Shown here: positions 4,858 to 42,432 of the stretch, piece after piece
Layout of the letters: every line of letters begins with the position of its first letter
Position numbering within the stretch: position 1 is the first letter of the stretch
From: Escherichia phage VB_EcoS-Golestan
Reading direction: 5' to 3' (one strand)
Sequence record: NC_042084.1
Length of the DNA: 44,829 nt
Position numbers and translations under genes: made by a program
The notes under the pieces: model-generated
The model's input: only the letters and a program-made list of their open reading frames with translations
Told to the model about the DNA's origin: nothing
The model's database searches: none

Positions 4858-4884
4858 GACGGCCTCCTCGTTTCGATGTAATGA

Positions 4885-4913
4885 ATAGTACCCTATTATA
4901 TTGGTGTGTGCAA
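4885..4913 (-). promoter_or_regulatory. class I promoter TTGCAC-N17-TACTAT with conserved leader
   Basis: Exact hexamers and 17-nt spacer. The leader reads TCATTACATCGAAACGAG then SD. It drives the lipoprotein cassette. Confidence 0.6.
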
Positions 4914-4979
4914 ACTATTTATTTACGTATTCCAGTTATTCCACTCAATTGTAAATGTTGGAATAAACTATTCGAATAG

Positions 4980-5008
4980 TTGACTTTTCACTAAAAATGT
5001 GCTAAGCT
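4980..5008 (+). promoter_or_regulatory. promoter TTGACT-N17-TAAGCT (leader module 1)
   Basis: Near-identical in sequence and spacing to 37602-37630. Confidence 0.6.
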
Positions 5009-5014
5009 CCACCT

Positions 5015-5212
5015 GAGCTTGTGAAGTATGAACAAGCGACCGCGGCGCGGGCAGGTAACGGAGCGGGACGTAAGGTCCTGAGTGTAGTTACGCTGACGCG
5101 TTCGGAAGGGCCATACTCTATTGCTTGTGTAAAAAGTAACGGGTTTACTGAGATTACGCCGTTTCTATGTTTAAATGATAAGGACTAGCGCCCCGCTTTA
5201 AGGCGGGGCTTT
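5015..5212 (+). ncRNA. putative ~200-nt leader/terminated transcript 1
   Basis: Runs from the predicted start site 7 nt after the -10 to the hairpin at 5190-5209. It shares a 38-nt identical block (5012-5049) and about 150 nt of homology with copy 2. Confidence 0.35.
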
Positions 5213-14120: not shown

Positions 14121-14149
14121 ATAGTACGCTATTATATTGGGGTGTGCAA
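14121..14149 (-). promoter_or_regulatory. class I promoter TTGCAC-N17-TACTAT
   Basis: Same hexamers and spacing as 4885-4913. It drives the Imm-like / phosphoesterase / phosphatase / kinase cassette. Confidence 0.6.
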
Positions 14150-14164
14150 GTAGTGTGCTAGAAT
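14137..14164 (+). promoter_or_regulatory. candidate promoter TTGGGG-N16-TGcTAGAAT (tail operon restart)
   Basis: Extended -10, divergent from 14121-14149. Confidence 0.35.
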
Positions 14165-14256
14165 AATTTTGCGCCTAGTGTCGCACACGAAAAGCGGGTG
14201 GTTCCCGTCTGGCGCATTTCCTTTAACCAGTAACCTCTTAACCAAAGGATTAAAGA

Positions 14257-24903: not shown

Positions 24904-26324
24904 TTCTTACCTCGTCTCTTCATGTAATTAAGCAACTCTTCCTGTACCGATTTCTTCTCGTCAGTACGTGTGGCAACAACCTCGTCCAGCGTGTCTTTAG
25001 CGACGATGTGATAGAGGAACACCGGTCGCTCGTGCCCCGCTTGTTTCTGGCGGACCGGGCCTATACGCTCAACAACCTGCAAATAGTGCTCAAGGTTCCA
25101 GCCTTGCGAGATGAACGCCAGATGATGACCCCCGTCCTGTAAATTCAAACCATGCCCGGCTGACGCAGGATGCACGCATAAAATCTCGATTTCCCCACGG
25201 TTCCACGCTTCCATCTGCTTATTACCCTTCGCACCTTTGGCAAATGCCTGGGCCTGCGGGAATCGCTTAAGGATGCGCTCCAGTTCGTGCTTGAACTGAT
25301 AGGCCACCAGTAACGGCGCGCCCTGTAACTCTTCCACAATGGACTCCAGTGCGTCCAGTTTCGTGTCGTGCACTTTCTCCCAGTCTTTGGTTGCTTCGCC
25401 GTCAGGGCCCGAAACATACACGGCACCGGAGGCAATCTGCAGACACTTCGACGTCTTCGCCGCAGCGTTAGCCGCTTCAACTTCTCCGCTTTCCAGTTCC
25501 GCGAATAGCTTCTCCTCCATATCGATGTACGCCTGACGTGCTTTCTTCGGCAGGTCGATTTCAACCGGCACGATAACAGGCGCTTCACAACCGAACCACT
25601 CGGCGGCGTCAATCGTCAGACTGATGTCCTTCATCTTCTGGTGAATCTCGTTATCTGCACCAGGGCGGGCGTGATATTCACGTGCCATCGCAGATTTTCC
25701 TTTCTGTACCGAATTAAACCAGCGGTCGGTGAATGCTGTATACGACGAACCTAGGCGCTCGCCAGCGTCGATAAACCAGTTCTGGCCCCACAAATCCTTG
25801 AGGCCGTTTGGTGACGGTGTACCAGTCAGGTTAATAAAACGCTTAACCCTTCCGAAAGCCACTTTACTAAGCGCCTTTGCACGCTTGCTACCACCTGAAC
25901 GGCTGCGGAATGATTTAAGCTTCGTGCTTTCATCTGCAACGATAACCGTAAAAGGCCAGTCGTCTTTGCCGTAGTAGTCAATCAGCCACTCGATAACCTC
26001 ATAGTTCGTGCAAACCACGTTAGCATCTGACTCCAGCGCCGCGATGCGGCGCTTCTCTGAACCAGTCGCATCTACAACACGCAGACATGGGAATTGCCAT
26101 TTCTCTTGCTCTGCAGGCCACGTACCAGACGCAACCCGCAGCGGGGCGAGGATTAACACGCGGTCGTCATCATTAAGTTGGCCGTTTCGGAACAGTCGGT
26201 TTAATGCCCACAGTACGCTGCCAGTCTTCCCAGCGCCCATGCTTGCCCATATGTTGCAGCGATGGTGCCGCAGCATGAACGAAGTCATGAGCTTTTGGTA
26301 CTCACGCCTTTGAAACTTACTCAT
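24900..26324 (-). CDS. SNF2/DEAD-like helicase
   Basis: Walker A SMGAGKTG, a DEST box (VIVADESTKLK) and C-terminal helicase motifs (HPASAGHGLNLQ). Confidence 0.8.
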   Translation of the reverse strand: MSKFQRREYQKLMTSFMLRHHRCNIWASMGAGKTGSVLWALNRLFRNGQLNDDDRVLILAPLRVASGTWPAEQEKWQFPCLRVVDATGSEKRRIAALESDANVVCTNYEVIEWLIDYYGKDDWPFTVIVADESTKLKSFRSRSGGSKRAKALSKVAFGRVKRFINLTGTPSPNGLKDLWGQNWFIDAGERLGSSYTAFTDRWFNSVQKGKSAMAREYHARPGADNEIHQKMKDISLTIDAAEWFGCEAPVIVPVEIDLPKKARQAYIDMEEKLFAELESGEVEAANAAAKTSKCLQIASGAVYVSGPDGEATKDWEKVHDTKLDALESIVEELQGAPLLVAYQFKHELERILKRFPQAQAFAKGAKGNKQMEAWNRGEIEILCVHPASAGHGLNLQDGGHHLAFISQGWNLEHYLQVVERIGPVRQKQAGHERPVFLYHIVAKDTLDEVVATRTDEKKSVQEELLNYMKRRGKK

Positions 26325-27246
26325 TTACCGCCCCCATGAATGCCTTTATAAATTCAGCAGCTACTTGCGGGACGATGGCATTGCCGTAACCGCGCAATCG
26401 TCCCACTCTGGCGGGTATCCCATCAGCCAGCGGGAATGTGCCGGGTTCAACTGGCCTGAATTTTCCATCCCGGCATCCGAGCCAGTCTGCCTCTGACCAG
26501 AAGCCGTGATGCGGATTGGTCGCGATATTTTCAGTCCCTGCTCCGTTGAGTAGTCCAGCCTGTCGAAAGTCCGGTCCTTTCCGTCCTTGCGAATCACTGT
26601 CTCTCCGCTCCCTCTGTAATCGTTCGCGGTCGGCGTCGCCCATGCCGTCATCGCGGCGGCCCACCCCAGTTTGTTCGGTTTCGTCCTGCCGTCTGTGCTG
26701 CGCATGTTCACGTCGTTTGTTATCAGTGATACTGCTGGCGTGGGCCAATCTATGCGCGCCGAAGAAAAGTCGGTCGCGTTTGTGCGGTGCGCCGACGCTA
26801 CAAGCTGGGAGTACGGCAAACCCGACGGCGTAGTTTTCTCCTTCCAGGTGAGTTTGTAAATCGCACATCCACGATTTTGCAATTGCTGGCGCAACCTGCT
26901 CCCCAAAGAGGACTGGAGGGCGGCACTCGCTGATGAGGTCGAGGAACACAGGTGCGAGGTGTCTCGGGTCGAACTGTCCGAGTTGCTTTCCCGCTGCGCT
27001 AAACGGTTGGCAAGGCGGGCTTCCCGTCCAGAGAGGCGCATCTTCCGGAACTCCCGCAAGTCTGAGCGCGAGAGGCCAGCCGCCGATACCAGCGAAAAAA
27101 TGACACTGGGTGAATCCGTCGAGGTCTTCTGGCTTAACTTCAGTAATGCTTCTTTCATCTACAACTCCAAAAGGTATGTGACCCTGTTTTATTAATTCAC
27201 GCAGCCACGCGGCTGCGCCTTTATCCCATTCGTTGTAATAGTTCAT
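26317..27246 (-). CDS. DNA (cytosine-5) methyltransferase
   Basis: Motif I FFAGIGGW, motif IV PPCQPFSAAGK, motif VI FGEQV, motif VIII APHKRDRLFF and motif X GYGNAIVPQVA. Residues about 165-245 are R/D/E/Q/G-rich low complexity. Confidence 0.85.
   Translation of the reverse strand: MNYYNEWDKGAAAWLRELIKQGHIPFGVVDERSITEVKPEDLDGFTQCHFFAGIGGWPLALRLAGVPEDAPLWTGSPPCQPFSAAGKQLGQFDPRHLAPVFLDLISECRPPVLFGEQVAPAIAKSWMCDLQTHLEGENYAVGFAVLPACSVGAPHKRDRLFFGAHRLAHASSITDNKRREHAQHRRQDETEQTGVGRRDDGMGDADRERLQRERRDSDSQGRKGPDFRQAGLLNGAGTENIATNPHHGFWSEADWLGCRDGKFRPVEPGTFPLADGIPARVGRLRGYGNAIVPQVAAEFIKAFMGAVNE
26361..27158 (-). CDS. alternative-frame ORF nested in the methyltransferase gene (WPTP-repeat region); coding status unresolved
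   Basis: 265 codons in the +1 frame on the same strand. GGAG lies 6 nt before the ATG. The C-terminal 170 aa carry KLTWKEKTTPSG, DWPTP, AWATPTAND and LNPAHSRWLMGYPPEWD. Confidence 0.35.
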   Translation of the reverse strand: MKEALLKLSQKTSTDSPSVIFSLVSAAGLSRSDLREFRKMRLSGREARLANRLAQRESNSDSSTRDTSHLCSSTSSASAALQSSLGSRLRQQLQNRGCAIYKLTWKEKTTPSGLPYSQLVASAHRTNATDFSSARIDWPTPAVSLITNDVNMRSTDGRTKPNKLGWAAAMTAWATPTANDYRGSGETVIRKDGKDRTFDRLDYSTEQGLKISRPIRITASGQRQTGSDAGMENSGQLNPAHSRWLMGYPPEWDDCAVTAMPSSRK

Positions 27247-27464: not shown

Positions 27465-27752
27465 CTAACTATAATAGTTCGCTATTAGGGCGTCAACCTG
27501 TTTAAACGAACCAACGACAAAAACATTAGCACCACGCTTACGCATCCGCTCGTGCTCCCGTAACTGGTGTGGATCCGGCTTCGTGCTTTCGTCTTTCTTT
27601 ATCTCGACGAACCAGATGACGCCGCCGGGGAGAATTACCAGCAGGTCAGGGGCGCCGGAACGTCCTTCGTAGGAAAGTTTACGAACGAGGCCACCAATGG
27701 CCTCGAATCGGTCTTTTGCGTATTTCTGTATTTTGCCCTCAGGCGTACTCAT
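27465..27752 (-). CDS. VRR-NUC domain nuclease
   Basis: GAPDLLVILPGG...FVEIKKD gives PD-(D/E)xK motifs. The ATG at 27752 (MSTPEGK) is preferred over the track start. Confidence 0.7.
   Translation of the reverse strand: MSTPEGKIQKYAKDRFEAIGGLVRKLSYEGRSGAPDLLVILPGGVIWFVEIKKDESTKPDPHQLREHERMRKRGANVFVVGSFKQVDALIANYYS
27468..27496 (-). promoter_or_regulatory. class II promoter TTGACG-N17-TATAGT
   Basis: Lies inside the 3' end of the VRR-NUC gene. The spacer carries the palindrome AATAG-N4-CTATT. Confidence 0.5.
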
Positions 27753-31235: not shown

Positions 31236-31264
31236 ACTATAATAGCTAACTATTCATGTGTCAA
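31236..31264 (-). promoter_or_regulatory. class II promoter TTGACA-N17-TATAGT (SSB operon)
   Basis: Consensus -35 with 17-nt spacer. The palindrome lies in the spacer. Confidence 0.6.
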
Positions 31265-32691: not shown

Positions 32692-33035
32692 CGTAAACTC
32701 TCCAAATACAAGTTTAATGCCTGTAACTGTTCTTCTGTAGGAATGAAAGAATCATCGCGATGTAAGTCGCTTAACTGTTGCAACATTCCTGCGAACTGAC
32801 GTCTTGCGTCAACAGCGTCCATGTGATGCTTTTCACTTTTATATATTAATGTTTTCGGGTAATCCTCAAGCCTGCCAGACGATTTATTCACGCGGAGCGC
32901 ACGAGCTTCATGCACAATGTGAATGTACTTTTTGCCGTTTTGTAACACAGTAGCTACGCCGCTGCTCTTTCTGCGGTCGCCGACTGTGTAAACCTTGTCG
33001 CCACTACGCAGATTAAGCCACCATTTATCGGTCAT
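32688..33035 (-). CDS. hypothetical protein (115 aa)
   Basis: ATG 33035 has an ATGA overlap with the upstream stop. Confidence 0.5.
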   Translation of the reverse strand: MTDKWWLNLRSGDKVYTVGDRRKSSGVATVLQNGKKYIHIVHEARALRVNKSSGRLEDYPKTLIYKSEKHHMDAVDARRQFAGMLQQLSDLHRDDSFIPTEEQLQALNLYLESLR

Positions 33036-33304
33036 ACCCTGTTCTCCCACTGGTCAATTAAATGTCGTGTCTGGTGCTGGCAGTGCATGGCCCAGCTATA
33101 CATCGACTCGAAGACATAAAAGTCAGGCTTGGCAAAAGTCGTGCGCTTAATCTGCGACACGTGACGGCCTATATCTTTGGGCCTGGGTACTTTGCCTAAG
33201 TACGCCATCTCTTCCATCTGGTGCGCACCGGAAGGAGCGCGCAATAGCCATAGAGCCTCCGTGTTATCCCGTCGGTCAATACCTCGGTAGAGTTGGTAAA
33301 TCAT
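33032..33304 (-). CDS. hypothetical protein (90 aa)
   Basis: ORF in the leftward operon. Confidence 0.5.
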   Translation of the reverse strand: MIYQLYRGIDRRDNTEALWLLRAPSGAHQMEEMAYLGKVPRPKDIGRHVSQIKRTTFAKPDFYVFESMYSWAMHCQHQTRHLIDQWENRV

Positions 33305-33346: not shown

Positions 33347-33850
33347 TTATTCTTCTTCGAAATACTTGTTCTTGATTGCCGTCAGGCGTTCAAGGTACTC
33401 GGGCAGGTCTTCATCTTTAATCGCGGCAATCTTCATTTTCTTACCGGTGAACTCCTCCAGCAGTTCATCGGAATCGTCGCACGCAGCATCGCTAGGACCT
33501 TCGTTAATTGCATCGTCGATAGCCTGAATCTGGTCACGAAGAGACTGGTAATCGACCTCTTCTTTCTCTTCTTCTGGTTCTGGAGTCGGCTCCTCTACTT
33601 TAGCTTTACGCGGCTTGCGTTTCGGCTTCTCTTCTTCTTCTGCTGGTTTAGCGTCAACGATGTCTTCACCTTCAACAGGGATTTCTTTTGTTGCTTCTTT
33701 TTCGCACTCAGCTACCGCTTCTTTGGTATACACTACCGTCTCTACTTCTAACGGCGCTGCAACTTGTGCTGACTGTTTCGCACTGTTCGCAGCAATCAGT
33801 TCATGTGCAACTACGAAACGTTCCAGTAATTTTAAGAATTGTTCTAACAT
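33347..33850 (-). CDS. highly acidic protein (167 aa)
   Basis: E/D-rich with one basic patch (EEEKPKRKPRKAKVEEPTPEPEEEKEE). Confidence 0.55.
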   Translation of the reverse strand: MLEQFLKLLERFVVAHELIAANSAKQSAQVAAPLEVETVVYTKEAVAECEKEATKEIPVEGEDIVDAKPAEEEEKPKRKPRKAKVEEPTPEPEEEKEEVDYQSLRDQIQAIDDAINEGPSDAACDDSDELLEEFTGKKMKIAAIKDEDLPEYLERLTAIKNKYFEEE

Positions 33851-34128: not shown

Positions 34129-34157
34129 ACTATAATAGCGAACTATTCACATGTCAA
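34129..34157 (-). promoter_or_regulatory. class II promoter TTGACA-N17-TATAGT
   Basis: Consensus -35. Divergent from the XRE-gene promoter. The palindrome lies in the spacer. Confidence 0.6.
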
Positions 34158-34177
34158 TGGGCTTTTCTAAAATAATT

Positions 34178-34191
34178 AATATGGTACTATT
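34178..34191 (+). promoter_or_regulatory. operator-like palindrome variant overlapping the extended -10 (TGgTACTAT) of the XRE gene promoter
   Basis: AATAT-GGTA-CTATT. The -10 TACTAT is at 34185-34190 with TG at 34182-34183. Confidence 0.45.
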
Positions 34192-34221: not shown

Positions 34222-34437
34222 ATGCAACCATCTGAACTAGGCATTCGTGTAGAACAACGCCGTAAAGAACTCGGCATCTCCCAGCGCCGTCTGGCGGTCC
34301 TGACCGGCGTTTCCCAGGGCGCAATTAACCAGCTGGCTCTCGGTGTAACTCAGGACGTCCGCCCGGCAACGTTGTTTAAACTGGCGGAAGTGCTGGAAGT
34401 AGACGCTAAGTGGCTGGCGTTCGGTGAAGGGGCTTGA
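34222..34437 (+). CDS. XRE/Cro-type HTH transcriptional regulator
   Basis: LGISQRRLAVLTGVSQGAINQLALG is a classic HTH_3 pattern. It is a lone rightward gene in a divergent promoter region and has its own terminator. Confidence 0.8.
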   Translation: MQPSELGIRVEQRRKELGISQRRLAVLTGVSQGAINQLALGVTQDVRPATLFKLAEVLEVDAKWLAFGEGA

Positions 34438-34452
34438 CGCCCCTTTCTTTTT
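34427..34452 (+). terminator. terminator after the XRE gene
   Basis: AAGGGG-loop-CCCCTT + TCTTTTTATT. Confidence 0.6.
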
Positions 34453-34648: not shown

Positions 34649-36906
34649 TCCAAATCCTCCTCTGTCACTGTCAACATTTCATTCGGTTCGTATATTGTCT
34701 TTGGAATCTTGTTATCGTTTATGCCCCACGGCAGTCGATATTGCTTAGGTATAGGCCTGTTGTTGTTATCCAGCCCAGAGACGATAACTCCCGCCTCGTG
34801 CATCTCTTCCAGTTTCTTTCGAAGGTCGTTATTAGCGTTAATTGGTACGCCGTAACTATCCTCTTTCGCGGCTTTGACGATAGCGGACATAGAAAACCCG
34901 CGCTTGTCGTCGCCCTGCTCCTGCAATTTACCCAACGCGTAAATAACCGTAGCCTCTTTGGTGTCCAGTTTCTCGAACTGACCTACCTTTTCTTTAACGG
35001 CTTCCTTCTGTTCGTCGGTCATACCTTCTACTTTCTTCACGAAGACAGAGAAGGCGTTAAAGTTAACAAAGACATCGATGTGCGGATTTCCCGCGTCAAA
35101 ATCTCGTACATCGTCACTACTATACCCTTCCGGAAGCCCCATGAAGTTGTGAGTTGGTTCTTTCTTTTCCGGTGGCTCCGCTATCTGAATCTTCTGTATT
35201 ACGAATCCTCTGGCTTTCTGCCGTTCTCCGTTTCGGTTCTTTATGTGATACAGGTTTATCTCTAAGTTATTGTCGTTGTCCGGCTTATGCAGGAACATCC
35301 CATTATCAATGGAGTTGTGAAAGTCGCTTCCACCCTTCGGCATCATGCCGTTTTCAGACGGCACAGTTTCGTCGATGTTTTTAGTCGGGTGCACCATAGC
35401 GCCGACCGCGGCGTTAAGCGTCGACGCTATTTCGTTAAGCGCCTGCGCCGCTTCTTTCATCGACCTGTTGTCGTTCTCGTCGAAGCCAGGTATGCAAGTT
35501 TGTAGGGTATCAAACGTAACCTTTACAATTTTCTCTTCACCGGCAACACGGCGCATCATTCTTACTGCCCGGCGGCGCCACACCTCATCGAGTAAGTTAC
35601 ACCCATCCGCAACACAATCGATAATGTGCAAGCGGTCAAGGTTGTCACCGAGGGCGATTTGCAAAGACTTTTTATGACGCTCGAACGACTGTGCACCTTC
35701 ACCGGCGAAAATGAACGCATGTCCTTCCGCGACCTCCGCCCCACCGAACGCATATCTTTTTTCGGAGGCAATAGCGGCGTCAATCGCCATGCTAAATGTT
35801 GACTTACCGGTGTGGGACTTTGCGCAAATGTAGAATGATTCGTTAGTCTGCATAAGGCCGTCTACGACGGAGTAAGCAGGTTCTTTTTCAACTTCCGGCT
35901 CGTCTTCGAGGTCTTCCAGCGTGCAAGTTACAGGCTCCTCGTTCTCTGTGCGATGCAGTTCTTCAACCTCTTCGTCCGGTAAATCAGGCAAAGCCGCACG
36001 AATGCTGTTAATACTGATAGGTTGCTTGTCTACGTTAAGCTCGTCCGGAAGGCCGCACATACGCAGGGCTAGATGTTGCCGGCGGTTAAGCTCGGTACAA
36101 GCGCCATTGTTTGTGTGCTGGCAGACAAAGCGCACTTCTTTACCGTCAAGCATGATGCTGGTGGAGCCTTTACCGGTGTGCAGGTGTTCGTTAGGGCAGG
36201 GCACTTCGTACCCGCGCCCGGAAGATAAAGCGTCAAGTCCAAGCTCCGCTTCGCAGAAATGCGCTATATCTGCGTTAAGCCCATGCTCATCAGCGGCAAG
36301 TGTCTTAGCTTCACGTTTACGCAACCCCATCTCTTCGGCTTTCTTGATGTACCGCTCCGCACGGATAACACGCCCTTCTGTAACCGTTATCTTCGACTCT
36401 CTATGCGGCAGGTAGATAAGGCGGTTGCCGTCTTCTGTGCAGTGGTCACGCAATGCCTCGTCTATTTCTAACTCTGCACAAATAGCCCGTTGCACCATCC
36501 ACGCATCGTTAGAGTTAAACGGCGTGCGAGCCGGAACCAGAACGCGGAAGGCGTAATCACCGTTTTTACACGCGTGCTGATGGGATGCCGTTGTGTGTAG
36601 AATATTGAAGAACGGCGCGTTCTTGAATTTGCGGGTAAGGTCGCGGTACTGAGTACGGTTGAGATGGTCGAAGTCAAACTTAACCACACTGTCTTCCAGA
36701 ATCGCGTTTTTACGGCGACCCCCAACGGGGGCGATAGCCTTCTGCTTAATCTTGGCAGCGTCGTACTCTTCCTTAGTCCATGACGGGTCTACGGACAGAC
36801 GCTTCGATGTATCGCAGACATATTCTACGAACTGCTCCAGCGGCATTTCACGCGCTACAGGGTTTTTATCGAATGTGTTGCGCAGCGTTGCAAAAACAAT
36901 ATTCAT
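34645..36906 (-). CDS. primase-polymerase (AEP-like) / RecA-fold helicase fusion
   Basis: The N-terminus has DxD (VKFDFDH) and an SxH-like motif (TTASHQH). A central Cys/His cluster is CPNEHLH...CQH...C. The Walker A is AKSHTGKST. Confidence 0.6.
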   Translation of the reverse strand: MNIVFATLRNTFDKNPVAREMPLEQFVEYVCDTSKRLSVDPSWTKEEYDAAKIKQKAIAPVGGRRKNAILEDSVVKFDFDHLNRTQYRDLTRKFKNAPFFNILHTTASHQHACKNGDYAFRVLVPARTPFNSNDAWMVQRAICAELEIDEALRDHCTEDGNRLIYLPHRESKITVTEGRVIRAERYIKKAEEMGLRKREAKTLAADEHGLNADIAHFCEAELGLDALSSGRGYEVPCPNEHLHTGKGSTSIMLDGKEVRFVCQHTNNGACTELNRRQHLALRMCGLPDELNVDKQPISINSIRAALPDLPDEEVEELHRTENEEPVTCTLEDLEDEPEVEKEPAYSVVDGLMQTNESFYICAKSHTGKSTFSMAIDAAIASEKRYAFGGAEVAEGHAFIFAGEGAQSFERHKKSLQIALGDNLDRLHIIDCVADGCNLLDEVWRRRAVRMMRRVAGEEKIVKVTFDTLQTCIPGFDENDNRSMKEAAQALNEIASTLNAAVGAMVHPTKNIDETVPSENGMMPKGGSDFHNSIDNGMFLHKPDNDNNLEINLYHIKNRNGERQKARGFVIQKIQIAEPPEKKEPTHNFMGLPEGYSSDDVRDFDAGNPHIDVFVNFNAFSVFVKKVEGMTDEQKEAVKEKVGQFEKLDTKEATVIYALGKLQEQGDDKRGFSMSAIVKAAKEDSYGVPINANNDLRKKLEEMHEAGVIVSGLDNNNRPIPKQYRLPWGINDNKIPKTIYEPNEMLTVTEEDLE

Positions 36907-37081: not shown

Positions 37082-37315
37082 CTAGCGTTGGGGTTTCTTT
37101 TGCCTACGTGCCGCATTAATCCACTCTCCTTCGCTCTGGTAGAAACTGCAATCAAGAATATCCTCTATAGAAAATTTAACTATTTTAGTGGGTCCACAAA
37201 AGTTATAAGGGAAAAGTTCTACATAACACCCATCGTCGGTTATATTTGACGCAATCTTGAAATAATATTTAATGCTGTCGTCTTCACGGAAGCTACAACC
37301 CATACGCCCAATCAT
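37082..37315 (-). CDS. hypothetical protein (77 aa)
   Basis: ORF in the leftward operon, coupled to the upstream HTH gene. Confidence 0.5.
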   Translation of the reverse strand: MIGRMGCSFREDDSIKYYFKIASNITDDGCYVELFPYNFCGPTKIVKFSIEDILDCSFYQSEGEWINAARRQKKPQR

Positions 37316-37494
37316 TTCACGTTCTCCTTAATCCACGCTTCAACTTTATTACGGTCAAATGTTCCTGGTAAACGGCGCCCCATAACTTTAATACAGCAGT
37401 CAGGGAATTTACCACTGCGTAACCAGTTATTAATTGTCTGACGTGTTACCCCGATACGTTCTGCTACTTCATTCTGGGTCATGTAATGTTGCAT
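37312..37494 (-). CDS. AlpA/MerR-like HTH DNA-binding protein
   Basis: MTQNEVAERIGVTRQTINNWLRSGKFP. AGGAG lies 8 nt before ATG 37494. Confidence 0.65.
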   Translation of the reverse strand: MQHYMTQNEVAERIGVTRQTINNWLRSGKFPDCCIKVMGRRLPGTFDRNKVEAWIKENVK

Positions 37495-37525
37495 TTTCAT
37501 ATCTCCTGTTTGTTTGGTGAAAACG

Positions 37526-37554
37526 AGTATAGGATAGCGGGAATGTAAAAGCAA
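37526..37554 (-). promoter_or_regulatory. promoter TTGCTT-N17-TATACT
   Basis: Upstream of the AlpA-like HTH gene and divergent from the leader-2 promoter. Confidence 0.45.
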
Positions 37555-37601
37555 CTAAAACACCACACAAAGTTACTAAGATACAAAAGATGCTACTGGT
37601 A

Positions 37602-37630
37602 TTGACTTTTACTAAAAAATATGGTAAGCT
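37602..37630 (+). promoter_or_regulatory. promoter TTGACT-N17-TAAGCT (leader module 2)
   Basis: Paralog of 4980-5008. Confidence 0.6.
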
Positions 37631-37636
37631 CAGCCT

Positions 37637-37858
37637 GAGCTTGTGAAGTATGAACAAGCGACCGCGGCGCGCGGCAGGCGAAACGAGCACGTGTAGCGTG
37701 TGGAGTGAGGCTCGCTAGCGCGTTTGGGAGGCCCAAAGTCTATTGTAAATCCCACCTAAATATCTAAGTTACTGATTTGCCGTAGGTCAGAACCGCAAGC
37801 TCACTCACTCACTCACTCACTCACTCTTGGTGCCTTCGGCACCACGTTCGTTTCGTTT
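37637..37858 (+). ncRNA. putative ~220-nt leader/terminated transcript 2
   Basis: Paralog of leader 1 (identical block 37634-37671). It contains (CTCA)6 and ends at the hairpin 37829-37843. Confidence 0.35.
37800..37826 (+). repeat. tetranucleotide repeat (CTCA)6 + CTC
   Basis: Counted directly. Noncoding and inside leader 2. Confidence 0.95.
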
Positions 37859-37910: not shown

Positions 37911-37939
37911 TTGCACACCCCAACATAATAGGATACTAT
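37911..37939 (+). promoter_or_regulatory. class I promoter TTGCAC-N17-TACTAT
   Basis: Exact hexamers. The leader reads TCACTTATCGAAACGAG then AGGAG. Confidence 0.6.
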
Positions 37940-37973: not shown

Positions 37974-38165
37974 ATGTTTAAGAAGGGTCAGTTGGTTAAA
38001 ACTAAACGCGGAGGGCAATATGTATTAGTGTTGCAGGACGAGAGCGAGTATGACGAGGATAATCTGGTTGACGTATGGGGTCTGGTAAGAAAGAAAACTG
38101 GGTTCGCCTCACGCGATAATTTAGAACTCATCGGCAACAATTTTAAATTCAAAGGGGTGAAGTGA
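37974..38165 (+). CDS. hypothetical protein (63 aa)
   Basis: AGGAG lies 8 nt before ATG 37974. It is the first gene after the promoter at 37911. Confidence 0.55.
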   Translation: MFKKGQLVKTKRGGQYVLVLQDESEYDEDNLVDVWGLVRKKTGFASRDNLELIGNNFKFKGVK

Positions 38166-38383
38166 TGATTAAGGTGGAGATTAAATCGAAAGAGACAAAA
38201 CAAACTGTAGCCAGTAAAGAATTCAACAGTGAATCCGAAATAGGTCCCTGGTTAAAACAGTACGTACATTTGCAGACGGTTTATATCATTCTGACGAAGG
38301 CAAGTGGCGTTACCGTTTTACTAGAACCGGCATCGAATAATGATGCTTGTGCCGACGACTCTGAGGGAGGTTGCCGTGGATAA
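38165..38383 (+). CDS. hypothetical protein (72 aa)
   Basis: ATG overlaps the upstream TGA. Confidence 0.5.
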   Translation: MIKVEIKSKETKQTVASKEFNSESEIGPWLKQYVHLQTVYIILTKASGVTVLLEPASNNDACADDSEGGCRG

Positions 38384-38425
38384 TATTTTAATTGTCAGCG
38401 CTGTTTATGCGGGGTGGAGGTTGAT

Positions 38426-38620
38426 ATGAGTCCATATAATGAATTCCGCTTACGCCGTCTTGTTGGTGGGCTGCGCGCCGCCGAGTTTGGCGTTGAATGT
38501 CGGGAAAAGGCGAAGTACACCCCATGGAAGTCGTGGAATTTGGCCCACGCTAAGGCGGTAGCGCAGTACCGGGAGTACAAGTTAAATAGTTTCCTAAAGC
38601 ACCACGGGGTAGAGCTATGA
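38426..38620 (+). CDS. hypothetical protein (64 aa)
   Basis: GGAGG lies 5 nt before ATG 38426. Confidence 0.5.
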   Translation: MSPYNEFRLRRLVGGLRAAEFGVECREKAKYTPWKSWNLAHAKAVAQYREYKLNSFLKHHGVEL

Positions 38621-38760
38621 GAGAAGCATTCGAACGGTGGGCCGTCGTCGAGGGTCTGCCGGTTAACAAGGGTTCGAAGAAAGAGTACCTGAACATTAAG
38701 ACGCGTCTCGCGTGGCGGGCGTGGAAAGCTGGTGTGCAAACTGTGATGAATACGAGGTGA
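38617..38760 (+). CDS. 47-aa hypothetical protein
   Basis: MREAFERWAVVEGLPVNKGSKKEYLNIKTRLAWRAWKAGVQTVMNTR. It has an ATGA overlap and is below the track cutoff. Confidence 0.4.
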   Translation: MREAFERWAVVEGLPVNKGSKKEYLNIKTRLAWRAWKAGVQTVMNTR

Positions 38761-38763
38761 GAT

Positions 38764-38952
38764 ATGAGCGAGTGGATTAAGTGTAGCGAGCGGATGCCGG
38801 AGCCTTATGAATACGTTCTTGTAACTGATGGTTTTGTCGGTTGTGAGGTTATGCGTGTTAATTCAGATGGCTACTGGGGACCAGCGAAGAGTTTATATCA
38901 CGGTGATATCTCCCACTGGATGCCCTTACCTGAGCCACCGGCGCCGGTGTAA
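38764..38952 (+). CDS. DUF551-like protein
   Basis: WIKCSERMPE...VLV...ISHWMPLPEPP matches the DUF551 pattern as remembered. Confidence 0.6.
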   Translation: MSEWIKCSERMPEPYEYVLVTDGFVGCEVMRVNSDGYWGPAKSLYHGDISHWMPLPEPPAPV

Positions 38953-38997
38953 CAGGGGGTATAACAGGTCAATAGGTTACTATTTTACTGAGTGACT

Positions 38998-39035
38998 TAC
39001 GCTGCTACACAGCAGCGTATCATTTTTCTCATTTT
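38998..39035 (+). terminator. intrinsic terminator TACGCTGCT-ACAC-AGCAGCGTA + T tracts
   Basis: 9-bp stem followed by TCATTTTTCTCATTTTT. Confidence 0.7.
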
Positions 39036-39112: not shown

Positions 39113-39141
39113 TTGCACACTAAGATAGAATAGGCTACTAT
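39113..39141 (+). promoter_or_regulatory. class I promoter TTGCAC-N17-TACTAT
   Basis: Exact hexamers. The leader reads TCATTTACACCAACGAG. Confidence 0.6.
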
Positions 39142-40414: not shown

Positions 40415-40500
40415 TTATCCAACTGAACGACATCATGAAAGCCGATATCATTCAGCTTGAAGATTACGGCATACAACTCGCGGAGATTCTCGGTATATGA
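40411..40500 (+). CDS. 29-aa micro-protein
   Basis: ATGA overlaps at both ends bridge the flanking genes. Confidence 0.3.
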   Translation: MIIQLNDIMKADIIQLEDYGIQLAEILGI

Positions 40501-40790
40501 GCCTCGCAACTGACATCCTGAAACGAAGCGGCCTTGCGCCGCTGTCACCGAGAGCGAAGACGAGTATATACAAGCGCCGAGGTAACGCGCTGTACCCAGA
40601 GATTCAGGCCAGACGTAAAGCTATCCGCGCCTGTGGATTCCAGAACGGGAAGGCTGTGAATCTCGGTGAGTTTAAAACGCAGGAGCGCGCAGCTATTGCT
40701 AATCGGTTATTTAATTACTGGAAATCGCTGGGATACGATGATATTCCGACTAAACCGCAGAGACGACAATACATCTGGCGTCATAAATAA
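40497..40790 (+). CDS. AP2-like DNA-binding domain protein
   Basis: GKAVNLGEFKTQERAAIANRLFNYW resembles the AP2/ERF-type fold seen in phage HNH and integrase partners. Confidence 0.4.
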   Translation: MSLATDILKRSGLAPLSPRAKTSIYKRRGNALYPEIQARRKAIRACGFQNGKAVNLGEFKTQERAAIANRLFNYWKSLGYDDIPTKPQRRQYIWRHK

Positions 40791-42099: not shown

Positions 42100-42121
42100 A
42101 TCTATTTTCGGTAATGACTAG

Positions 42122-42150
42122 TTGACTATTACCCTCGACCCTATTATATT
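42122..42150 (+). promoter_or_regulatory. promoter TTGACT-N17-TATATT
   Basis: Followed by the leader TACTCCATCGACAACGAG, related to the class I leaders. Confidence 0.55.
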
Positions 42151-42183: not shown

Positions 42184-42432
42184 ATGAGTAACGTACTGAC
42201 AATCGCAATAACCGAGGAACTTGAAGCCAAATGTATCGCATGGACTATGGGTAATGACCCGGTTGCTATGCGTAAATTTCCAATGAAAATCACAGACATC
42301 GAAGCATTCAAAGATGCACAACTGATGGCACGCATCGCCGTTAGTAACCTGAGCAATAGCATCCCTGCGGACGCGTTCTGGTTCGCTGCAATGCAGACAC
42401 TTAAAGCAGCATATGCAGGAGAGAAGAAATGA
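42184..42432 (+). CDS. hypothetical protein (82 aa)
   Basis: First gene after the promoter at 42122, with SD GGAG upstream. Confidence 0.55.
   Translation: MSNVLTIAITEELEAKCIAWTMGNDPVAMRKFPMKITDIEAFKDAQLMARIAVSNLSNSIPADAFWFAAMQTLKAAYAGEKK

Follow-up and report, generated by a model that had tools for sequence, protein, structure and literature searches.

A candidate operator palindrome dispersed over the promoters of the virulent phage vB_EcoS_SCS44, and a 434 Cro-like protein as its most probable binder

The window analyzed here, a stretch of 44,829 bp, is the complete genome of Escherichia phage vB_EcoS_SCS44 (ON001686.1), a virulent siphovirus of the genus Kagunavirus (Guernseyvirinae), whose record annotates neither an integrase nor a CI-type repressor. 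A gene for a 71-aa XRE/HTH_3 protein is present on the + strand (34222..34437, with a terminator at 34426-34446). Its neighbours are hypothetical genes and a helicase operon; the genome has a single methyltransferase gene (26317-27246), at a distance of 7 kb, and no annotated endonuclease. The region upstream of the XRE gene carries an exact copy of the palindrome AATAG-N4-CTATT (34134..34147, AATAGCGAACTATT) within a predicted leftward promoter (-35 TTGACA at 34157..34152, -10 TATAGT at 34134..34129), and a one-mismatch copy (34178..34191, AATATGGTACTATT) which overlaps, on the + strand, the -10 (TACTAT, 34185-34190) of a promoter for the XRE gene itself. The G-to-T deviation in the latter copy is fixed in all Kagunavirus variants. 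The promoter at this copy has no good -35 in Kagunavirus, and in Jerseyvirus it is of the form TTGC(A/G)(C/T)-N17-TACTAT (class A, see below). A possible rightward -35 (TTCACA, 34146-34151) adjoins or overlaps the exact copy; in the alternative rightward promoter TTCACA-N16-TAAAAT, this copy would lie at the -35 and the variant just past the start. Helical phasing of the two sites was considered and rejected, since their spacing is 44 or 45 bp in Kagunavirus vs 55 bp in the Jerseyvirus wksl3, so that no strict phase is kept. The original prediction had taken this divergent region for a classic regulatory switch; one exact and one fixed variant copy are indeed located there, but with about 11 sites in the genome it is not the centre of the system.

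A pattern search of the whole SCS44 genome found AATAG-N4-CTATT at eight sites, starting at positions 4884, 14120, 27473, 31241, 34134, 37927, 38971 and 39129, against a mean of 0.02 in dinucleotide-preserving shuffles, in which 8 copies were never reached. With up to one mismatch, 13 sites were found and 1.13 expected. All eight exact sites of the original prediction were thus recovered at their positions, and the one-mismatch copy that it had placed at 34178-34191 is among the 13. When all half-sites of 4–6 bases with gaps of 0–8 were enumerated, this palindrome was the most over-represented one in both SCS44 and phage Snoke, ahead of terminator stems. Each exact copy is intergenic or at the extreme 3' end of a gene, the sites at 27473 and 31241 overlapping the final bases of annotated CDSs because their promoters sit at gene ends. 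The exhaustive scan, which had been proposed as a check for copies scattered at random through coding regions, found no further exact copy in the coding sequence of SCS44, and only one of the five one-mismatch copies (21318) lies deep within a gene. The word CTATT by itself is strongly concentrated in non-coding DNA, which constitutes 6% of the genome. One of the one-mismatch copies (TATAGTATGCTATT, 2776-2789) is located directly 3' of the portal-gene terminator and is kept in phages G, LM02P1 and wksl3; no convincing promoter was seen around it.

Promoters are described here as sequence predictions, not mapped transcription starts, and sites are oriented by the downstream gene. Seven of the exact copies could be assigned to two classes of promoter, all seven members of which have a 17-bp spacer in SCS44. 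Class A, TTGCAC-N17-TACTAT, has four members, every one with the palindrome: P4884 (palindrome 4884..4897, -35 4913..4908, -10 4890..4885) and P14120 (14120..14133, -35 14149..14144, -10 14126..14121) on the - strand, and P37927 (37927..37940, -35 TTGCAC at 37911-37916, -10 TACTAT at 37934-37939) and P39129 (39129..39142, -35 39113-39118, -10 39136-39141) on the + strand. P14120 drives the superinfection-immunity, phosphoesterase and kinase genes, P37927, in which the right half overlaps the -10, is followed by the small early genes at 37974-38952, and P39129 drives the genes from 39173 onward. In this class AATAG occupies spacer positions 11–15 and CTATT the final four bases of the -10 and one more, with the dyad centre at about -12.5. 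Class B, TTGAC(A/G)-N17-TATAGT, has three members, all leftward and all with the palindrome: P27473 (palindrome 27473..27486, -35 TTGACG at 27496..27491, -10 27473..27468), located within the 3' end of the VRR-NUC gene and driving a methyltransferase and helicase operon; P31241 (31241..31254, -35 31264..31259, -10 31241..31236), driving the operon of the ssDNA-binding protein and DNA polymerase; and P34134, described above. Within the right half of the genome they rank highest as sigma-70 promoters, agreeing with the consensus at 10–11 of 12 positions. Here the whole dyad lies in the spacer, sharing just its last T with the -10, and is centred at about -18.5.

A third register is represented by conserved one-mismatch copies placed over the -35 TTGACT, with centres at about -33.5. 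One of them (ACTAG-TTGA-CTATT; ACTAGTTGACTATT, 42117..42130) covers the -35 of P42122 (42122-42127, + strand), which has the -10 TATATT at 42145-42150; the other (AATAG-TTGA-CTTTT; AATAGTTGACTTTT, 4975..4988), kept in phages G, LM02P1 and K1B4, covers that of P4980 (4980-4985, + strand), which has a TGc-TAAGCT -10 at 5003-5008. The candidate operators thus overlap the -35, the spacer or the -10 of predicted promoters, that of the XRE gene included. The overlap of seven exact copies with a -10 or spacer, as originally described, therefore holds for all members of both classes. So does the description of the eighth (38971..38984, + strand), said to follow a DUF551-like gene and to lack a -35: a TACTAT is present there without a -35, and the site is located between the DUF551 gene and a terminator (38998-39019). 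No copy was seen at the terminase promoter (TGTACA-N18-TATAAT) or at the extended -10 promoter read in front of the tail genes. A conserved leader word, AAACGAG or CAACGAG, was noticed just upstream of the Shine-Dalgarno sequence and downstream of several palindrome-bearing promoters (4873, 34117 on the minus strand, and 37950, with variants at ~39155 and ~42165); it is also found in leaders of Jerseyvirus and of the Serratia phage.

For an estimate of constraint, relatives were collected from phage records and IMG/VR contigs, and for five promoter sites only distinct 34-mers were kept (n = 100). The half-sites differed from SCS44 in 10 of 1000 cells (1.0%) and the central N4 in 79 of 400 (19.8%), while the 10-bp flanks, with the invariant hexamers included, differed in 116–137 of 1000 (~12%). 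At the 34134 site the half-sites are invariant in 24 distinct variants and the centre varies; the exception is 38971, at which both halves are kept in 6 of 10 variants. RNA polymerase does not read the spacer, to which both class B halves and the class A left half belong; across the 100 variants, such half-site positions are more conserved, by a factor of 12–20, than the spacer positions next to them. An indel that falls between dyad and -35 in some relatives has shifted the -35, the dyad staying fixed relative to the -10. Part of the conservation of the right half in class A is owed to RNA polymerase, since this half doubles as the -10. The palindrome is real, far beyond chance and under purifying selection, and it has the dyad symmetry, conserved outer half-sites and non-conserved central 4 bp of a 434/P22-type operator.

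The same figures bear on a reading in which there is no dedicated binder and the palindrome is only a by-product, due to the architecture of the promoters and their common descent, through duplicated cassettes with -10-like, near-symmetric hexamers on each strand. The module TATAATAG-N4-CTATTCA is common to both classes, so that common descent of promoter cassettes does contribute to their similarity, and the leaders are similar within each class. Moreover, the right half equals the -10 in class A, and the class B promoters have a perfect TATAAT on the opposite, + strand (34129-34134, 31236-31241 and 27468-27473), overlapping the left half-site (TATAATAG). These TATAAT hexamers were rejected as real promoters, there being no -35 at 16–18 bp, and are for this reason probably by-products of symmetry rather than divergent promoters. 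We consider the by-product reading improbable, however, in view of the strong conservation of the spacer half-sites, the retention of the word at three registers, the symmetry of its variants or the replacement of the word at the same positions in one genus.

These last two features were seen in the search of relatives that had been suggested along with the scan, which found the element kept in Kagunavirus, Jerseyvirus and a Serratia relative. Exact copies number 7 in Snoke, 6 in G, 8 in LM02P1 and 9 in K1B4 (all Kagunavirus), 3 in wksl3 (Jerseyvirus) and 1 in the Serratia relative Smarc3, other promoters of which carry degenerate copies. In wksl3 there are also class B sites with AATCG or CGATT, i.e. 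the same substitution in either half, and AATCG is found in either half across wksl3 and Smarc3. Likewise, P42122 has its mismatch on the left in Kagunavirus (ACTAG...CTATT) and on the right in wksl3 (AATAG-TTGA-CTAGT). Symmetric variation of this kind is predicted if a dimer reads two half-sites that are equivalent. A flanking T and A at the wksl3 sites extend the element to 16 bp in Jerseyvirus. In Cornellvirus (the ZS group, including FSL SP-031), no AATAG-N4-CTATT was found at up to one mismatch; AATAC-N4-CTAAT, which is not a true palindrome, occurs at the same promoter registers, with 3 exact and 2 one-mismatch sites (3134, 4055, 7371, 13996 and 33131 in Salmonella phage vB_STM-ZS), all in promoter-like contexts. 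This word is kept in IMG/VR relatives with a variable centre, and is absent from the SCS44 promoters. When IMG/VR was scanned for the class B promoter, contigs beyond those of Guernseyvirinae size gave just single matches, probably due to chance.

The distribution of the words also bears on whether a host transcription factor binds the dyad. The sites do lie in sigma-70 promoters of enterobacterial phages, and the screen of host factors was non-exhaustive, but the element follows the phage lineage: Jerseyvirus and Cornellvirus both have Salmonella hosts and use different words, whereas Kagunavirus, with E. coli as host, and Jerseyvirus share the same one. Since the word tracks phage lineage and not host, the binder is more likely to be phage-encoded. 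We know of no E. coli regulator with this consensus, and a host factor appears very improbable.

Among the phage proteins, the 71-aa XRE protein is most probably the binder, judging from its sequence, modelled structure and distribution. It matches Pfam HTH_3 (E 2.3e-12), and its best solved relative by sequence is 434 Cro, which is also 71 aa long (phmmer against the PDB, E 2e-6, residues 6–68). The AF2 model (pLDDT 81.5) has five helices, and its top Foldseek match is again 434 Cro (2cro, TM 0.73/0.79), followed by matches to the 434 repressor, the C proteins C.AhdI, C.BclI and C.Esp1396I, SinR, HipB and P22 c2, the last of which is among both the sequence and the fold matches. The protein thus combines an HTH_3 domain with a five-helix, 434 Cro-like fold. 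In the lambdoid phage CobraSix, a homologue is located in the cro position, between genes for a CI-like repressor and a CII-like protein. The XRE protein is present in Kagunavirus, Jerseyvirus, Cornellvirus and Smarc3, and is the sole HTH protein found in every element-bearing lineage. In addition, distant homologues of the subfamily on unrelated viral IMG/VR contigs adjoin 5-N4-5 dyads of their own: one contig has three copies of TGTAG-N4-CTACA (7878, 8280 and 8309; 0.11 expected) beside the XRE homologue and another three copies of AATAC-N4-GTATT (6409, 7195 and 7220; 0.04 expected).

Covariation of the XRE recognition helix with the operator is equivocal. The proteins of Kagunavirus and Jerseyvirus are 49% identical, and their recognition helices (SQGAINQ and SQSLITH) differ at 4 of 7 positions with the same core operator; that of Cornellvirus (TQSAISH) resembles the Jerseyvirus helix although the element differs. 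The original proposal that the XRE protein, or another HTH protein of the phage, may gate promoters through this palindrome finds partial support: constraint, registers and symmetric variants all speak for the operator, and the XRE protein stands as its best candidate ligand, but helix covariation does not settle the assignment.

Other phage proteins were also considered as binders. One is a 62-aa HTH_17 (excisionase/MerR-like) protein (37312..37500, - strand), whose gene opens the helicase-primase operon. Its identity between Kagunavirus and Jerseyvirus, which share the core motif, is 82%, the corresponding figure for XRE being much lower; a K1B4 RNA-seq paper lists an HTH-domain gene, probably this one, among four peaking within 30 min; the number of exact copies drops in lineages without it; and the promoter of its own operon, read by eye as TTGCTT-N17-TATACT (~37535-37563, - strand), has no copy of the palindrome. 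Against this, not even an HMM search finds HTH_17 in Cornellvirus or Smarc3, both of which keep operator-like elements at the same promoter positions. In LM02P1, moreover, the HTH_17 protein is only 66% identical, with the recognition helix SPMTLNRW instead of TRQTINNW, yet this phage has 8 exact palindromes and an XRE protein 98.6% identical. The covariation of the HTH_17 helix with the operator is likewise equivocal. Small HTH_17 proteins tend to act as monomers or to recognise direct repeats rather than 14-bp dyads, and we regard this protein as an unlikely binder. The diverged LM02P1 gene is located at 35280-35465, the rest of the regulatory region being conserved, and no close HTH_17 relatives were found outside Kagunavirus and Jerseyvirus in the phage collection or IMG/VR.

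The imperfect covariation of the XRE helix would favour an unrecognised phage protein, for which the products of 33347-33850, 33032-33304, 40497-40790 and 42184-42432 are candidates, all four being conserved in all four lineages and two of them lacking a Pfam domain. In none of the four was a DNA-binding domain seen, however, and the XRE protein already fits by fold, operator geometry and position, so that the chance of such a binder seems small. Three further ideas were rejected: i) a NinH-like protein as the binder, as it is present in Cornellvirus, which lacks AATAG/CTATT, and missing from Smarc3, which has it; ii) a role as an RNA hairpin, the stem being 5 bp and the class A element lying upstream of the predicted start; and iii) MerR-type activation, which would call for an over-long spacer (19–20 bp) and a regulator with a dimerising coiled coil, the spacers here being 17 bp and HTH_17 having just 62 aa.

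The XRE protein and the palindrome can be compared with several known systems. The operators of 434 Cro and repressor are 14 bp long (ACAA-N6-TTGT), and in the 434 complex the outermost adenine is contacted by the recognition helix through its first glutamine. The likeness to our system extends to the 71-aa, five-helix HTH_3 fold, the 14-bp dyad, conserved in its outer bases and variable in between, the overlap with promoter core elements and the weaker site on the regulator's own promoter; the glutamine is conserved, and every lineage with it has an operator starting with AATA. Unlike 434, SCS44 is virulent, with no CI partner and no OR1–3 triplet, its sites are spread over ~40 kb at no fewer than 7 promoters and not in two clusters, and the half-site sequence is unrelated. 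Nor does the XRE region resemble a lambdoid CI-OR-Cro immunity region: no CI-like repressor or integrase is annotated, the divergent neighbour of the XRE gene has no HTH, and there are two sites 44 bp apart instead of three in tandem. The P22 repressor binds rotationally symmetric sites in which the outer bases are contacted and the four non-conserved central bp are not (PMC4267663). The palindrome described here has the same conservation pattern, being symmetric with four variable central bp, but the P22 sites are 18 bp long and serve a lysis-lysogeny switch, while those of this lytic phage are 14 bp (16 bp in Jerseyvirus).

As to dispersal, 8 exact and at least 3 conserved variant copies are located between 4884 and 42130. 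The likeness here is to P1 C1 and mycobacteriophage L5 gp71, in which one small regulator acts at many scattered sites on many operons. The C1 operators and gp71 stoperators are asymmetric and serve prophage maintenance, the L5 stoperators blocking elongation, in contrast to the symmetric sites of SCS44, which lie in promoter cores and would act within the lytic cycle. The C proteins of restriction-modification systems are likewise small, have the XRE fold and regulate their own promoter by binding to dyads there, but SCS44 has many dispersed sites and no restriction-modification pair adjacent to the gene. The palindrome system would thus be of the Cro/434 type. It would be unusual in that Cro works alone, in a virulent phage, at sites scattered over most of the early and middle promoters, and in that the operator words are genus-specific.

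Taken together, computation gives good support to AATAG-N4-CTATT as an operator. That it is the operator of a phage-encoded dimeric HTH repressor, most probably the 71-aa XRE protein, forming a Cro-type regulon in a virulent phage, is a reading of the sequences to which we assign a probability of about 60%, with the XRE protein as binder, repression as effect and the timing as its inferred steps. According to this model, host sigma-70 RNA polymerase would fire the near-consensus phage promoters after injection. As the XRE protein accumulates, its dimer would occupy the 14-bp dyad, each recognition helix reading one outer 5-bp half-site and the central 4 bp staying uncontacted. Polymerase would then be excluded by a dyad over the -10 (class A), over the spacer and the upstream edge of the -10 (class B) or, at the weaker one-mismatch copies, over the -35, and the host-takeover, immunity and DNA-metabolism operons would be turned down on both strands. 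At higher protein concentrations, the fixed weaker copy on the XRE promoter would add negative autoregulation. As the dyad is inside the RNA polymerase footprint in every class, repression would most naturally be steric; activation is unnecessary, and MerR-type action excluded, since class B is near-consensus and all seven spacers are 17 bp. The genes driven from palindrome-bearing promoters are small early ones, those of the superinfection-immunity operon and those of three DNA-metabolism operons. The sole transcriptome of a relative, an RNA-seq study of K1B4, reported a latent period of 30 min, sampled to 120 min and classed genes by peak time only, and is for these reasons too coarse to show a shut-off. 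A full-text literature search found no study of the promoters or regulators of these phages, neither operators nor this motif being described in the genome papers examined, and no promoters are listed in the annotated phage records examined. Serratia phage eta has been described as sharing just a part of its genome (22–43 kb of its map) with the group, with no repressor homologue reported.

If the model holds, a promoter set and a one-protein regulon would be defined for the whole subfamily, and the presence of a repressor-annotated gene in strictly lytic genomes would be explained. It would also provide synthetic biology with a compact orthogonal repressor-operator pair with natural variants, and half-site mutations and genus operator swaps would become handles for phage engineering. 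A more speculative extension, which we rate as unlikely, is that the Cro-only circuit gates nearly every strong early and middle promoter of the virulent Guernseyvirinae and that operator and regulator have co-diverged by genus (AATAG/CTATT vs AATAC/CTAAT), creating immunity groups among strictly lytic phages. If true, the regulator of a resident phage could silence the promoters of a relative that co-infects or superinfects if the two share a type, but not if their types differ, and immunity types would shape phage competition and cocktail design. For therapy or food biocontrol of E. coli and Salmonella, few phages are isolated as often as Kagunaviruses and Jerseyviruses.

Three other features were noted near the promoters described above. 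Two unannotated stretches on the + strand, 4980-5209 and 37602-37844, are paralogous, with 77% identity overall and near identity over the first ~100 nt. Each has a strong extended -10 promoter (TTGACT-N14-TGn-TAAGCT) at its start and an intrinsic terminator at its end (5190-5209 and 37828-37844, respectively). They look like a pair of phage non-coding RNAs, although neither matches a family in Rfam. A (CACT)6 microsatellite (37802-37825) is located just upstream of the terminator of the second stretch. Finally, the region 14168-14232 (+ strand) has a gathering-level Rfam match to int-alpA RNA (RF02996; 36.6 bits vs a cutoff of 35.8) and lies between an extended -10 promoter (gTGcTAGAAT, ~14152-14161), which is back-to-back with P14120, and the tail assembly chaperone gene.
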